A stretch of 64,000 nt of DNA from an uncultured Alphaproteobacteria bacterium (GTDB lineage Bacteria > Pseudomonadota > Alphaproteobacteria > Rhizobiales > Beijerinckiaceae). The position numbers were made by a program, and so were the translations under genes. Shown here piece by piece: positions 16,385 to 22,445 of this stretch (positions are counted from its first letter, which is position 1; each line of letters opens with the position of its first letter). A model generated the notes under the pieces. That model was given only the letters and a program-made list of their open reading frames with translations, had not been told where the DNA came from and did not search any database. The DNA lies in assembly GCA_963713805.1 (NCBI GenBank), contig CAVQNF010000002.1, positions 1 through 64,000 on the forward strand. Reading direction: 5' to 3'.

Positions 16385-16830
16385 AACTGGTTCCCCGCCT
16401 GCGCGGGGATGAGCGGGAGAGGTTTGGCCCCCCCGCTCAGGCCCGCAGCCTCACCCCCGCTCATTCCCGCAGCCTCACCCCGCTCATTCCCGCAGCCTCA
16501 CCCTCGCTCATTCCCGCGAAGGCGGGAATCCAGGCTCGTAGGGCAGCTCCGAGAACAGCTGGTTCCCCGCCTGCACGGGGATGAGCGGAGAGGTTTGAGC
16601 CCTCGCTCATTCCCGCAGCCCCACCCCCGCTCATTCCCGCGAAAGCGGGAATCCAGGCTCGTAGGGCAGCTCCGAGAACAGCTGGTTCCCCGCCTGCGCG
16701 GGGATGAGCGGAGAGGTTTGAGCCCTCGCTCATTCCGGCAGCCCCACCCCCGCTCATTCCCGCGAAAGCGGGAATCCAGGCTCGTAGGGCAGCTCCGAGA
16801 ACAGCTGGTTCCCCGCCTGCGCGGGGATGA
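16385..16830. repeat. Tandem array (about 123-bp period, about 3.5 units) of double-hairpin palindromic elements
   Basis: Recurring modules are ggttccccgc-ctgc-gcggggatgagcgg and gctcattcccgc-gaaa-gcgggaatccagg, separated by a ctcgtagggcagctccgagaacagctgg spacer and gctcattcccgcagcc(c/t)cacccc linkers. Direct repeats are visible at 16506, 16629 and 16752. Confidence 0.8.
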
Positions 16831-16891
16831 GCGGAGGGGTGAAGGCGCCGGCCCCCTCACCTCTCCCGCAGGGTCCCGCAGGGAGAGGTGA

Positions 16892-18910
16892 TCAGCGGCA
16901 GAGGTTCACGCGCGTGCGGCAGACCTCGATGAAGCTCGAGTTGAAGCTGATGAGCGAACCAAGCGGGTTGCCGTTCTCGTCGAGCGTCGGGGCGCTGGAG
17001 TTCTTCTTCATCGTCGATCCGCCCGAATTCCCGGCTTGCGAGCCGCTTGTATCGGAGACTTGCACGATGAGGCTCGCGAGCACCGGATCGATGAAGGAGA
17101 AGACCGGCGTTCCGTTGCCCTGATCCATGCTGAAGGGCACGGGCGGGAGCGAGTTGTTCGCCGCCGTGACGAGAAGCGTGCCGGGCACGAAGGTGATGTC
17201 GAAATTCGGCGAGCTCACGCCGCCGGCGAAGATCTTGAAGCTTCCCGGCGAGCCCGTGGGCGCGTTCGTCGTGAAGCTGAGCATGCCGGTAAGCGCGCTC
17301 GGCCCGAGCCCCCCGGGGAACGGCCCGAAGCTCGCGCTGAACACGGGCTCCGGCGTGCCGACCACCTGCGTTTCGTTGCTCGCCGTGATGGTGAGCGGCG
17401 CCGGCGTGATCGTGCCCGTCGCGTTGACGACGGTGAGCGTGTAATTCCCGCCGCCATTGCCGTCGTTCACCGTGAGCGGGCCGAGCGCCATGGCGCGGCT
17501 TCCCGCATTCGCCGAAGCGAAGCTCTCGGCGAGCCCGCTCACGCTGTCGGTCCCCTTGAGGCCCGACACTTGCGCGCTCACGCTCGAGCCCGTGGTGCCG
17601 TCGAACACCTTGTTGTCCGACACTGCGCTCACCGTGAGCTGCGCCTTGTCGATCGTGCCCGTGGCGTTGACGAAGGTGATGGCGTAATTCCCGCCGCCAT
17701 TGCCGTCGCTCACCAAACCCGACGCCGACAGCGTGCTGCCATTCTGGCCGAGCACATTCTTCGAGCCGAAGGCTTGCGTGTAGCTCGCCGTGTCGTCGAC
17801 GTTGTGGCCCGTGACGATCACGGTTCCACCTGCCGCTCCGCTCATCCCCGCGAAAGCGGGGATCGAGTTCTTCGAGCCATTCCCGGCCGAGCCTGGGTTC
17901 CCGCCTGCGCGGGAACGAGCGGAGGGGGTGCCGCCGCTCACGTCGATGCGGCCCGTCACCTTCGCGAGCTTCGTCGCCTTGATGGTGACGCGCCCGCCCG
18001 AGCCGTCGCGGTTGCTCGCCGAAATGCGGCCCGCTCGCGAAGACGCTGCCGCCCGCCGTGAGCCACACATGGCCGCCGCGCATCGCGCTGCCCGTCGCGC
18101 GAATCATGCCGGTGTGATTGCCGGCGAGCGCATAGACATTGCCGCCCGCGGCCTTGAGCTCGGCTTGCGCCGCCGCGATCGCGCCCTTGTTCCTCACATC
18201 GCCCTTGCCGTAGCGCACCGCCATGCGGCCGCCGCCGACCGACATGTCCTTGAGGAGCACCTCTTGGCCGGCGCCCAGGCCCACCGTCCCGTTCGGCGCG
18301 TTGATCGAGCCCGAATTCACCACCGAGCGCGCGATGAGGAAGACATCCCCGCCGGAGGACGAGATCGAGCCGAGGTTCTTCACCATCCCGTCGCTTCGCG
18401 CCCTTGCCCTCGAAGCGCAAGGTCGAGCCCGCCATGAAGTTCTGGTTCGAGATGTCGAGCGAGGAGGCGACGAAGGAGCCGCCCGTCGTGATGACGCCGC
18501 TCTTGCCGACCACCACGCCTTGCGGGTTCACGAGATAGACCGAGCCCGTGGCGCGCGAGCGTGCCCATGATCTGCGAGAGCGATGCCGCCGGTGACGCGA
18601 TCGAGCGTCGCGCCCATGCCGTTGTTGATCTTGACCGTGCCGCTCTTGCCGATCGAGAAGCTGTTGAAATCGATGATGCCGCGCTGGCTCGATTGCGTGA
18701 TCGTCTCGGTGAGGCCTTGCGTGCCGATCGAGCCCGTGCCTGCGACAAAATGCCCGCCTTGCGGGAGCATGTTCGCCGGGACGGCGACGGGCGAGCCCGC
18801 CTGCGCCGCCGAGGCCGCAGCAAGGAGTGAAGTGCTTGCGAGCGCCGTGCTCGCCGCGAGGCTTGCGAGGAAGCGCCGATGGGCACCACGTCGGGCCGTG
18901 CCGGGAGCCA
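16892..18910 (-). pseudogene. Filamentous-hemagglutinin/TpsA-like exoprotein (TPS secretion domain plus MBG-like repeats), frameshifted; no TpsB partner in the window
   Basis: Signal peptide MAPGTARRGAHRRFLASLAASTALASTSLLAAASAAQA. TPS domain LPQGGHFVAGTGSIGTQGLTETITQSSQRGIIDFNSFSIGKSGTVKINNGMGATLDRVTGG. The sequence continues in other frames (NPQGVVVGKSGVITTGGSFVASSLDISNQNF...; ...ATGSAMRGGHVWLTAGG). The C-terminal part has GNGGGNYxxTxVNATGTI...LT(I/V) repeats. Confidence 0.65.
17841..17930. repeat. One copy of the double-hairpin element inserted in frame inside the FHA-like coding sequence
   Basis: ccgctcatccccgcgaaagcggggatcgag...gggttcccgcctgcgcgggaacgagcgg. It is translated as ...GNPGSAGNGSKNSIPAFAGMSGAAGG... 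inside the ORF. Confidence 0.7.
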
Positions 18911-19280
18911 TGCGCCCCCGCTCGCTCTCGAACACGCCCGCCTCGCGGCAGGCCCCATCAGAATGACGAATGGACATAGTGCCCCTCATTGCGTCAGCAA
19001 GGCCGAAATCGGCCTTGAGGCTTTGCCTCATCAGATCGCTTATGAAACTAGCCTCAACTCTAACTTCGACGTGAGCACGTGGAAGATTGAGCGCCCGTGA
19101 CGTTCGTAAGGCACGCCGAGCACTCTCATACAGCCTCTATTCCCTTTAACACAGCCGGGCCCCACAAGATATCGTGATCGTTGCGGCCCATTTCCCTGTG
19201 CAATTGTCCGGCTTATCTACTACGGATAAATTTGTAAATGGCCGTTCACATGTACCAACTTTTGTTAGCGATGGCCAACA

Positions 19281-19352
19281 AGCCTGGATTCCCGCTTGCG
19301 CGGGAATGAGCGGAGGTGAGGCTGCGGGAATGAGCGGGGGTGAGGCGCGGAA
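19281..19352. repeat. Double-hairpin element fragments (inverted orientation relative to the 16.4-16.8 kb array) abutting the GIY-YIG start
   Basis: cctggattcccgcttgcgcgggaatgagcgg aggtgaggctgcgggaatgagcgggggtgagg is the reverse complement of motifs in the 16.4-16.8 kb array. Confidence 0.7.
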
Positions 19353-19640
19353 ATGAGCTTCTACGTCTATATTCTGGCGAGCCGACGCAACGGCACGCTC
19401 TATATCGGCATGACGGACGATCTCAATCGGCGGGTTTTCCAGCATCAGGAAGGAGTGTTCCCGGGATTCACCAAAAAATACGGGGTCAAAATTTTGGTCT
19501 GGTTCGAGCAGCATGAAACCCGCGAGAGCGCCTTTCGTCGAGAGCGCGCTTTGAAGAAATGGAATCGAGCCTGGAAGCTGGCGCTCATCGAGCGCTCCAA
19601 TCCGACTTGGCGTGATTTAGCCTTGGAACTTGAACCGTGA
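19353..19640 (+). CDS. GIY-YIG nuclease family protein (small, UvrC-N-like)
   Basis: MSFYVYILASRRNGTLYIGMTDDLNRRVFQHQEG...: the GIY-YIG core (YVYIL..GTLYIG..DL.RR...H). 95 aa. The ATG lies inside a repeat motif variant (gcgcggaaATGAGCttc). Confidence 0.85.
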   Translation: MSFYVYILASRRNGTLYIGMTDDLNRRVFQHQEGVFPGFTKKYGVKILVWFEQHETRESAFRRERALKKWNRAWKLALIERSNPTWRDLALELEP

Positions 19641-19666
19641 GCCGTCATCTCATACCTCTCCGCCGT

Positions 19667-19808
19667 CCCCGCTATGCGCTACATTTCCGCTCATCCCCGC
19701 AATGCACTACATTTCCGCTCATCCCCGCAATGCACTACATTTCCGCTCATCCCCGCAATGCACTACATTTCCGCTCATCCCCGCAATGCACTACACATTT
19801 CCGCTCAT
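19667..19808. repeat. 28-bp direct tandem repeat, 5 copies (ccccgcaatgcactacatttccgctcat)
   Basis: Adjacent copies at 19667, 19695, 19723, 19751 and 19779 (the last carries a 2-bp insertion). No spacers, so not CRISPR. Confidence 0.8.
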
Positions 19809-19925
19809 CCCCGCGAAGGCGGGGATCCAGTTCTTGGAGCTGCCCTATAAGCCTGATTCCCGCTTGCGCGGGAATGAGCGGGGGTGAGGCTGCGGGAATG
19901 AGCGGGGTGAGGCTGCGGGCATGAT
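19801..19925. repeat. Complete double-hairpin element plus tail
   Basis: ccgctcat-ccccgc-gaag-gcgggg-atccag-ttcttggagctgccctataagcctg-attcccgc-ttgc-gcgggaat-gagcgg, then gggtgaggctgcgggaatgagcgg. Confidence 0.75.
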
Positions 19926-19945
19926 GGGTGGGCTCAAACCTCTCG

Positions 19946-20035
19946 GCTCATCCCCGCAATGCCCTACATTTCCGCTCGCCCCCGCAATGCACTACATTTC
20001 CGCTCGTCCCCGCAATGCGCTACATTTCCGCTCAT
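19946..20035. repeat. 28-bp tandem repeat, 3 degenerate copies
   Basis: ctcatccccgcaatgccctacatttccg / ctcgcccccgcaatgcactacatttccg / ctcgtccccgcaatgcgctacatttccg. Confidence 0.7.
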
Positions 20036-20145
20036 CCCCGCGAAGGCGGGGATCCAGTTCTTGGAGCTGCCTTATAAGCCTGGATTCCCGCTTGCGCGGG
20101 AATGAGCGGGGGTGAGGTTGCGGGAATAAGCTGGGGCGAGGCTGC
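20028..20145. repeat. Second complete double-hairpin element plus tail
   Basis: Near-identical to 19801..19925 (ccgctcatccccgcgaaggcggggatccagttcttggagctgccttataagcctggattcccgcttgcgcgggaatgagcgg...). Confidence 0.75.
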
Positions 20146-20177
20146 GGAATTCCGTAATTCTCCTAATTCAGAATGCG

Positions 20178-22445
20178 TCAGAAGCTCTTCGACAGCCCGG
20201 CGAGGATCGTGCGCCTTTGCCCGAATTGCGGCGCCGCGACCCCGATGCCGGTGCCGTTGCGAAGCTCGTATTTGCGGTCCGTGAGGTTGATCATGTCGAG
20301 GCGGGCCGTCATCTTGCCCATTCCGGGCGCCTCGAACTCATGCTTGATGCCGGCGTTGACCTGCACGTAATTCGGCTGGCGCTGGGTGTTGGCGAAGCCC
20401 GATCTCAGCCCCGAGCCGGAGATCAGATCGGTGGTGAGCAGCGTGTCGACCGAGCCGATAGGAGGCGCCGCCCGAGATCGTGAAGCGCTGGTCGTGATCG
20501 AGATAGACCCAATGGATTCGCGACGAAGGCGAGCTCGTCGGCGGCGAAGAAGAACTGGCTCGAGATGATGTTCTTTCCTTGCGCGCGCGAATAGGCGAAA
20601 TTTCCGTAGAGTGAAAGATTGTCGATCTGGTAGGAGGCCGTGACCTCCGTCCCGTAGACCTTCCCATGCTGATAATTGAAGGGCGCGAAGACGAGCGCCT
20701 GGCCGAATTGGCCTTCATCGATCAGATCATTGGCGCGTTTGTAATAGGCGTCGAGGCCGAGCTGGAAATCGGGTCCGAATTTCTGGATGACGCCGGCGTC
20801 GAAATAATTCGCGCGCTCGGGCTTCACGGGAGCTATCCGCGGTGACGCTCGGAGCCGCCGTCGTGTTGGCGAATTTGGAGATCGTCTCGGGTGCGATCAA
20901 TTCCAGGGGCGGGGGCGTGAAATAGCGCGCGTAGCCGAGATGGACGGTGGTGCCGTCGAGCGGCTTGTAGACGAGATTGACGCGTGGTGAGAGCTGGTTC
21001 TTGTCGATGAATTGGAAGCTCTCGTCGAAGCTCGCGCCGTAGTTGAGCGTCAGCTTGTCGGAGATCTTCCACTCGTCCTGCGCGTAGAGGCCCGCGAGAT
21101 AGCCGATCTTCCTGCTGTTGTCGGAGATGGCGAAGGGCTGATCGATCGGGTTCCCGTTCGCGTCGAGCGGCAGCACGGTCGACAGATTGCTCGAGCGCGC
21201 GCGTTCCACATCGGCGAAGAAGCCGGCGCGAAAGGTGTGCGACGGATCGATCTGGTAGCTCAGATCGCCTTGAAGGCCGTTGGCGAAATTCTCATGGCGC
21301 ACATTGGAGGCGACGCCATTGAACAGGACGATCGCCGACCGGATCGGGGAAGAAATGCGTCAAGGTGTATCGGCTGAAATAGGCGAGCTGCATGTTCAGG
21401 TCGCCGAGCGATTTCTGCAAGGCGAGGATGTTGAAATTCGAATTCCTCCAATTGCTGCTCGCGCAGGCCCGCCGAGTTGAAATCCGAAATGCCGAAGGCG
21501 GTGAAGGCGGGCATCTGCCCGGGATTGTTGGGAAGCCGGAATTGGCTCACCGCCGTTCCGGAGATGAAGCTCAAGCGCGTGCTCTCGTCGATGATGCCGG
21601 AAAGGTAGAGAAAGCCCCTGCCCTGCTCGGTGAAATCCTTCACCGGAACGAGCGAGTGGGTGGGATTTTCGATGCCGATGTTGTTCTGGAGGTAGCTTCC
21701 GGAAACGAAGTAGTCGAGCTTTCCGGTCGAGCCCCCATAAGAGAAGCTCGGCAGGAAGGTCTGGCGCTGCCCGCCGTAAATCGACACTTCGCCACCGGGC
21801 TCGAGCGTTCCGCTCTTCGTCTCGATGTCGACGACGCCGGCGGTTCGGTAGCCGTATTCGGCCGGCAGCGCTCCGGTGATCAGATCGATGCGGCGCGCGA
21901 AGCGGGTGTCGAACAATTGCGAGAAGCCGCTGATCGTCTCGGGGATGATGATGCCGTTGATCCGAAATTGCAGGTTCGCATGATCGCCGCGCACATGGAG
22001 CTGGCCGAAGGAGTCCTGGGCAACGCCGGGCGCCTGAAGCAAGGTCTGGCTGAGCGATGCATTGTTGCCGAGCGGCTGGGTATCGATCGCCTCGCGGTTG
22101 ATCTCGTAGCTCGAGGCGCCGACCGCGGTCGAGATCTGGTTGCGCGCCTGGTCGAGCCGTGCGGCCGTGACCGTGATGTCGAACCGGTCGCTTTGCCCGA
22201 CTTCGGTCACCACGCTTCTCGTCGGACCGGGCTGCACGGCCGGGCCGCTGGTCGCCGGCGCGGCGGGCTCCCCGGTGCCCGCTGTCGTCTGAGGCGGGGC
22301 GGTGCTCGCAGGGGCTTGAGCGAAGGTCTGGGCTTGAGCGAAGGAGGTGAAACGAAACCAAGGCCCAGGAGGAGACAGAGGAGGAGACAGAGGAAGAAAC
22401 GCCTGAAGGCAACGAAAAAAGCGAAAGGCACCGGGGACACTCCAT
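20178..22445 (-). pseudogene. TonB-dependent outer-membrane receptor, at least 6 frameshifts
   Basis: Plug and barrel segments are spread across frames (VTAARLDQARNQISTAVGASSYEINREAIDTQPLGN...; RHENFANGLQGDLSYQI...; ANYFDAGVIQKFGPDFQLGLDAYYK...). The C-terminal ...RRTILAGLSKSF* carries the TonB-box-end aromatic residue. Signal peptide FFLCLLLCLLLGLGFVS. Confidence 0.75.

Follow-up and report, generated by a model that had tools for sequence, protein, structure and literature searches.

The start codon of an Ssn-type GIY-YIG gene lies inside a truncated unit of its flanking repeats at one alphaproteobacterial locus

Our analysis of a stretch of DNA from an uncultured alphaproteobacterium (64,000 nucleotides, hereafter the window) finds that the start codon of a small GIY-YIG gene, the ATG at 19353, sits inside a truncated unit of the tandem repeats that precede it. 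The gene and the repeats belong to a system that has already been described, Ssn/SRM, within which a start codon in the repeat is a real but local quirk. The explanation that we consider probable is an Ssn locus in which slippage or a microhomology-mediated deletion at a shared ATGAGC produced the junction. The features that bear on this are as follows.

19284..19315, minus strand: full hairpin repeat (SRM/NTS-like) CTCCGCTCATTCCCGCGCAAGCGGGAATCCAG, matched by the NTS consensus with one inserted base
19298..19358, plus strand: 24-bp tandem array GCGGGAATGAGCGGnGGTGAGGCT, 2.6 copies, from Tandem Repeats Finder and alignment with gene-less arrays
19306..19356, plus strand: upstream ORF MSGGEAAGMSGGEARK of 16 codons with repeat-unit ATGs, the C-terminal part of ORF 19174-19356
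19336..19346, plus strand: Shine-Dalgarno-like sequence GGGGGTGAGGC, repeat-derived, with GAGG 7 nt before the ATG and holding the TGA at 19341-19343
19347..19358, plus strand: truncated third repeat unit GCGGAAATGAGC, whose last 6 nt are codons 1-2 (Met-Ser)
19353..19640, plus strand: ssn-type gene for a 95-aa single-domain protein of the GIY-YIG nuclease type, MSFYVYILASRRNGTLYIG..., with Tyr6, Tyr17 and Glu64 present
19659..19814, plus strand: 28-bp tandem array, 5.5 copies, orphan 5' halves TCCGCTCATCCCCGCAATGCACTACATT, from Tandem Repeats Finder
19801..19830, plus strand: full hairpin repeat CCGCTCATCCCCGCGAAGGCGGGGATCCAG downstream of the gene, -9.7 kcal/mol, z -3.3
19852..20147, no strand: gene-less continuation, with hairpins at 19852-19882 (minus), 20028-20057 (plus) and 20080-20111 (minus)
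16387..16833, no strand: second repeat cluster, 7 hairpins, convergent doublets, 123-bp higher-order period
17839..17922, no strand: convergent doublet of hairpins, 84 bp, within the adhesin-like ORF 16892-18070 (minus) and in its reading frame

The 95-aa protein consists of a single recognizable domain. The Pfam family PF01541 (GIY-YIG) covers residues 3-75 (E 7.7e-16), and the sole other Pfam match, T5orf172 (E 9.4e-4), falls on the same residues, so that there is no second domain. The catalytic positions stand in the translation as MSFYVY(6)...GTLY(17)IG...FRRE(64)RALK, homologues (n = 5676) are mostly 94-95 aa in length, and most of the 120 closest proteins share the Met-Ser N-terminus (MSF[YFW]VY). 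A tblastn search of the 64-kb window returned no further GIY-YIG copies, leaving a gene count of one. At the 5' end of the gene, positions 19345-19364 read gcgcggaaATGAGCttctac, in which the ATG at 19353 opens the ORF. A start further upstream is impossible because of the in-frame TGA at 19341-19343, which lies inside the GGTGAGG of the repeat, and a start at Met20 (MTDDL), the downstream alternative that the initial annotation had named, would cost the domain its first strand together with Tyr6 and Tyr17. Since, in addition, the domain begins at residue 3, sequence comparison and the ORF place the translation start at 19353, as the initial annotation had it.

The repeat appears to supply more than the context of the start codon. 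We infer that the repeat-derived GGTGAGG acts as the Shine-Dalgarno sequence of the gene, and the TGA of the short upstream ORF overlaps the start codon in the form ATGA. This layout is typical of translational coupling, a role that the ORF at 19306-19356 may therefore play. This ORF opens at two ATGs of repeat units, 19306 and 19330, and is also still open in the related loci L001 and L002 despite substitutions. A promoter scan returned one weak sigma-70-like site at 19146-19175, which is no more than expected by chance.

The identity of the locus follows from comparison with the Ssn family, whose members are ssDNA nucleases with GIY-YIG as their single domain and have genes bordered by cognate hairpin repeats, termed NTS/SRM (Chenal et al., Nat Commun 2025, PMC11893778). 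The initial annotation had missed this match to a published system. SsnA of Neisseria meningitidis (NMV_0044) is a single-domain GIY-YIG protein of 94 aa (CDD cd10448) that binds the oriented repeat NTS, CGTCATTCCCGCGMAVGCGGGAATCYRG, only when it is single-stranded DNA and cleaves a few nucleotides to its 5' side (PMC11893778), and mutation of Tyr6, Tyr17 or Glu64 abolishes its cleavage (PMC11893778, Fig. 3 legend). At least one SRM lay nearby in 71% of the Ssn homologues examined in that study and SRMs lay on both sides in 42%, and its authors remark on the IS-like NTS-ssnA-NTS architecture and on the parallel with RAYT and REP (PMC11893778). The window matches this description in having a GIY-YIG protein of about 94 aa that consists of this one domain, lacks any extra DNA-binding domain and has Tyr6, Tyr17 and Glu64 in place, oriented flanking hairpins 5' and 3' of the gene with a YCCCGC-N4-GCGGGR stem, repeats with an NTS-like CAT-containing 5' flank and ATCCAG 3' flank, and a clustering of the repeats near genes for outer-membrane or secreted proteins. 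Judged against the published description of SsnA, the locus thus appears to be an Ssn-family gene lying between copies of its own recognition hairpin; CCGCTCATYCCCGCGNNNGCGGGRATCCAG is the predicted ssDNA target of the 95-aa protein, whose nuclease activity and specificity we infer by this comparison.

The repeats of the window depart from NTS in one respect, a 5' flank that is one base longer, CGCTCAT versus CGTCAT. The published SRM pattern, HGTCWYN(0-2)YYVSBRHN(0-5)WNVSBRGN(0-2)RNCYNB, misses the hairpins because of this flank and has 0 matches in the window, where the NTS consensus with one inserted base has 13. Despite the failure of the literal pattern, the repeat motif is, by its sequence, clearly homologous to NTS. 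The hairpin flank of relatives can also read CGTTCGT, which again is not CGTCAT. These observations place an abundant soil alphaproteobacterial group, represented by Xanthobacteraceae-like metagenome contigs, in the Ssn/SRM system, and since the CGCTCAT variant escapes the published pattern, surveys that use this pattern would undercount or miss that large group.

The junction between array and gene is documented by several features. Upstream of the gene the order is the hairpin, GGATTCCCGCTTGCGCGGGAATGAGCGG, followed by 24-bp tandem units that consist of the right arm of that hairpin plus its flank, repeated. The sequence GCGGAAATGAGC matches the repeat unit GCGGGAATGAGC at 11 of 12 positions, with one mismatch, and stands in phase with the units at 19300 and 19324, at spacings of 24 and 23 nt; as delimited by Tandem Repeats Finder, the array at 19298-19358 therefore ends on the C of ATGAGC. 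The minus-strand reading of GCGGAAATGAGC, GCTCATTTCCGC, corresponds to the 5' half of a hairpin repeat, here an orphan with no hairpin fold of its own. ATGAGC has as its reverse complement GCTCAT, the flank of the hairpin. Allowing for one mismatch at most, we count 29 copies of the repeat 12-mer in the window, where shuffled sequences lead one to expect 1.03. The junction, GCGGAAATGAGCTTCTA, is present at orthologous loci in 12 independent metagenome contigs and is therefore no assembly artefact of the window. When gene-bearing and gene-less arrays are aligned, they are homologous up to ATGAGC/ATGATG and then diverge at once. The initial annotation was thus correct in describing the gene as beginning in a variant of the repeat terminus that carries an in-frame ATG-AGC.

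It could be argued that ATGAGC is just the start that the gene has in common with its relatives, and that any likeness of the 6-8 nt upstream to a repeat arm is accidental. ATGAGC is indeed the ancestral start, the region is GC-rich, and the unit carries one mismatch and follows at a phase of 23 rather than 24 nt. We nevertheless hold such a coincidence to be improbable. Given ATGAGC, the 6 nt before it would by chance agree with GCGGGA at 5 of 6 positions, as they do here, or better in about 1% of cases (0.0096 from base composition, 0.0102 from all 6-mers), and outside the repeat clusters such 6 nt precede only 1 of 43 ATGAGC sites. With the two preceding bases included, GCGCGGAAATGAGC agrees with GCGCGGGAATGAGC of the hairpin at 13 of 14 positions, the truncated unit keeps the phase of two perfect ones, and the gene-less arrays align through the same position.

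The distribution of these features was examined in 161 scored loci, which include the window and two orthologues; the other 158 are non-orthologous. The relatives comprised 80 genome and 80 metagenome loci, the latter taken from among the matches listed, at no more than 80% identity, while relatives closer than these came from exact-protein look-ups. The best GTDB-representative match to the protein is 82% identical. Scored as TCRTYCCCGC-N4-GCGGGRAYCC, a hairpin lies within 160 nt of the gene in 153 of the 158 non-orthologous loci, and on both sides in 114 of the 158, in agreement with the association published in PMC11893778. The view of the initial annotation that gene and repeats are one compact module and not chance neighbours is borne out by these counts. 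In the dominant arrangement (75/161 loci) a forward hairpin stands upstream and an inverted copy downstream. The core of the forward upstream hairpin ends 11-17 nt before the start codon in 78 of 105 such loci, the reverse downstream hairpin begins 2-11 nt after the stop codon in 62 of 92, and the whole module of gene and hairpins in this common arrangement spans about 370 bp. These fixed spacings, between forward hairpin and start and between stop and hairpin, are absent from the 2025 paper. The 3' end of the forward hairpin (CCAGGAG) was considered as a general Shine-Dalgarno sequence and rejected, with GGAG, GAGG or AGGA in only 19 of 86 spacers.

The window has the opposite of the common arrangement, a reversed hairpin upstream and a forward hairpin downstream, which it shares with others in a group of 19 of the 161 loci. 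Two relatives in other genomic contexts, L167 (which adjoins lexA) and L175, have 84-85% identity and the same reversed-hairpin arrangement, and their junctions, gcgcggccgATGAGC and ggcgccggccgATGAGG respectively, are a decayed version of the one in the window. Among relatives at least 75% identical that have a forward hairpin upstream, 16 of 18 start with RTGAGY (Met-Ser), and L177, at 82% identity, likewise reads ...gggaatccagaggaatcatATGAGCTTCTAC; ATG-AGC is for this reason the gene's own ancestral N-terminus, whichever way the hairpin is turned. The proposal that the repeat terminus doubles as the Met-Ser start thus holds insofar as the ATG at 19353 lies inside the truncated unit, but the codons themselves belong to the gene. 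As a statement about the source of start codons it applies to the window and its orthologues and not in general: the start codon is preceded by GCGGRA in 3 of the 161 loci, only the window and its orthologues, among the matches listed. The expectation that the 5' ends of homologues would also lie within the motif consequently failed at the level of the family.

Taken together, these data are probably best explained by a sequence of events in which orphan half-repeats would have multiplied into a tandem array on the predicted cleavage side of each flanking hairpin, and the array on the reversed upstream hairpin would have become continuous with the ORF at the hexamer that both contain. The event would have been a slippage or a microhomology-mediated deletion between the ATGAGC of a repeat unit and the gene's own ATGAGC, and it may be placed in the ancestor of a small clade, in which the relatives of 84-85% identity would carry the decayed version. 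After it, the Shine-Dalgarno-like GGTGAGG, the in-frame stop and the short upstream ORF ending in ATGA would all be repeat sequence. As to direction, the unit may have fused to the ATGAGC of the gene, or the arrays may have been seeded from the 5' end of the gene.

According to the latter possibility, the 24-bp units, with their ATGAGC and GGTGAGG, were copied from the 5' UTR and start of the gene, and the gene-less units are MITE-like internal deletions. Every unit does have the Shine-Dalgarno-like motif and an ATG, and the gene-less junctions are homologous to both flanks of the gene (...GCGGGnATGA... on the left, CTCAAACCTCTC on the right). Against this, hairpins of all taxa include the GCTCAT/GTCAT flank, however the gene starts, CTCAAACCTCTCCGCTCAT is just the extended 5' flank of a forward hairpin, and the bases between the flanks (GAGGG versus TTC...GCCGTAAT) fit no single clean deletion. 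Because the flank is part of the hairpin across all taxa, and because ATGAGCGaGGGCTCAAACC, the gene-less junction, is no clean deletion derivative of the gene-bearing one, copying from the gene is disfavoured and seems to us quite unlikely. We likewise rejected a clean deletion with its ends in two TGAGC copies, one at the start and one at the stop, as the origin of the gene-less units, since the junction it predicts, ATGAGCCGTAATCTCAAACC, disagrees with the observed ATGAGCGAGGGCTCAAACC.

A design by which every autonomous mobile copy of gene plus repeat has its nuclease start in the repeat terminus, an idea encouraged by the ATG that the opposite strand of the hairpin flank always has (ATGAGCG here, ATGACG in the canonical NTS) and by the tight packing of gene and hairpins in nearly all loci, is very improbable, since the three loci with a start inside a unit are all one orthologous locus, in a further 32 loci, whose upstream hairpin is reversed, the core ends 7-89 nt before the start, and the dominant arrangement has its hairpin forward and its ATG on the other strand.

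Returning to the junction by slippage or microhomology-mediated deletion, the arrays from which it would have arisen are themselves the most interesting by-product of this work. The 64-kb window holds 14 full hairpins in three clusters, all within 3.8 kb: 7 at 16387-16833, one doublet at 17839-17922 and 5 at 19284-20111. Thirteen of these were found with the NTS consensus and one inserted base and the fourteenth (about 16559-16588) by eye. As ssDNA they form hairpins with a stem of 8 bp and a loop of 4 nt, the one at 19284-19315 at -9 kcal/mol (z -2.9). Beside them stand orphan half-repeats, made up of the flank, one stem arm and about 10-14 nt, which do not fold; the unit sequences GCTCATTCCCGC and GCTCATTTCCGC lack a partner arm. 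Arrays of orphan 5' halves occupy 19298-19358, 19659-19814 and 16430-16517 in the window, the second of which leads into the downstream hairpin and varies in copy number between strains. In the gene-less continuation at 19852-20147, 24-bp and 28-bp half-unit arrays make up one and a half higher-order units of 229 bp, one of which is missing from strain L163.

The upstream hairpin is reversed and the downstream hairpin forward, so that the 5' side of both faces the gene, and by analogy with SsnA this gene-facing side is the predicted side of cleavage. Full hairpins tend to have the orphan 5' halves to their 5' side (58 versus 15 in unrelated loci, 19 versus 3 in the window). Orphan 3' halves are much less polar, with 23 upstream versus 14 downstream in the unrelated loci, and there are none in the window. 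It is conceivable, though we think it unlikely, that the arrays are in vivo footprints of Ssn action. Repeated nicking of ssDNA just 5' of the hairpin would then lead to slipped repair or replication restart, the segment of flank plus arm would be duplicated and the repeats would grow. The polarity of the arrays (58 versus 15), their strain-variable copy number and their presence in 11 unrelated lineages are consistent with such a process. If it did operate, it would have rewritten the 5' end of the nuclease's own gene, with ribosome-binding site, upstream ORF and start all made of repeat units, and expression would be coupled to the state of the nuclease's own target array.

The half-repeat tandem arrays and the start codon inside one of them set the window apart from Ssn loci as published, and both go unmentioned in the text of PMC11893778, as do the polar arrays on the predicted cleavage side. 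The locus is a new member of the Ssn/SRM kind, marked by its variant repeat flank, its reversed hairpin arrangement and its half-repeat arrays. The spacings and the polar arrays could guide experiments on the spread of SRMs and the expression of ssn, and the junction, a local curiosity, illustrates that repeats are able to donate translation signals.

Comparison with other classes of repeat-associated elements helps to delimit the locus. The layout resembles that of REP/REPIN-RAYT systems (IS200/IS605-like, HUH Y1), in which a gene lies between inverted hairpin repeats that its product recognises as ssDNA, and the repeats of the window form convergent doublets and BIME-like higher-order clusters as REP/REPIN sequences do. 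The enzyme here, unlike RAYT, is of the GIY-YIG and not the HUH type, and the cut directed by one flanking hairpin would lie on the other strand from the cut directed by its partner. GIY-YIG being its only domain, the protein belongs to none of the known transposase classes (HUH Y1, DDE, serine). There is no evidence of transposition in the one gene copy of the 64-kb window or in the 14 near-identical contigs, all 14 of which represent the same orthologous locus and vary only in repeat copy number. A GIY-YIG homing endonuclease of the I-TevI type was rejected, given a length of only 95 aa, no intron context and a TIGR01453 score of 17.7 bits against a cut-off of 56. Proteins of the UPF0213/YhbQ type share the fold family and the size, and a sequence search of the PDB with the 95-aa protein returned UPF0213 proteins only, the best matches among solved structures being 1ZG2 and 1YWL (E 7e-6 and 1e-5); the similarity is distant only, and we know of no association of UPF0213/YhbQ proteins with hairpin repeats.

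Rickettsia palindromic elements are MITE-like repeats that insert in frame. The 84-bp doublet at 17839-17922 recalls them in lying in frame in a coding region, and, as with Rickettsia-type repeats, the repeats of the window carry ATG and Shine-Dalgarno-like sequences that could act as coding or start signals for host genes; unlike those elements, the gene affected here is the repeat's own cognate nuclease. The doublet contributes 28 in-frame codons (...SKNSIPAFAGMSGAAGG...) to an adhesin-like ORF whose domains include MBG_2 and YDG.

The gene for a TonB-dependent receptor at 20178-22400 (minus strand) is split over three reading frames and differs by three single-base gaps from an intact 745-aa orthologue on L163, and the haemagglutinin/adhesin-like gene at 16892-19031 (minus strand) is also split over three frames; both are either pseudogenes or products of indel errors in a long-read assembly. 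Comparison of 17407-18618 and 19917-20145 with L169 and L163 shows a region that is hypervariable among strains. L169 is without about 1.2 kb of the adhesin-like gene, and L001 and L002 carry an extra hairpin doublet of about 160 bp just upstream of 19280.
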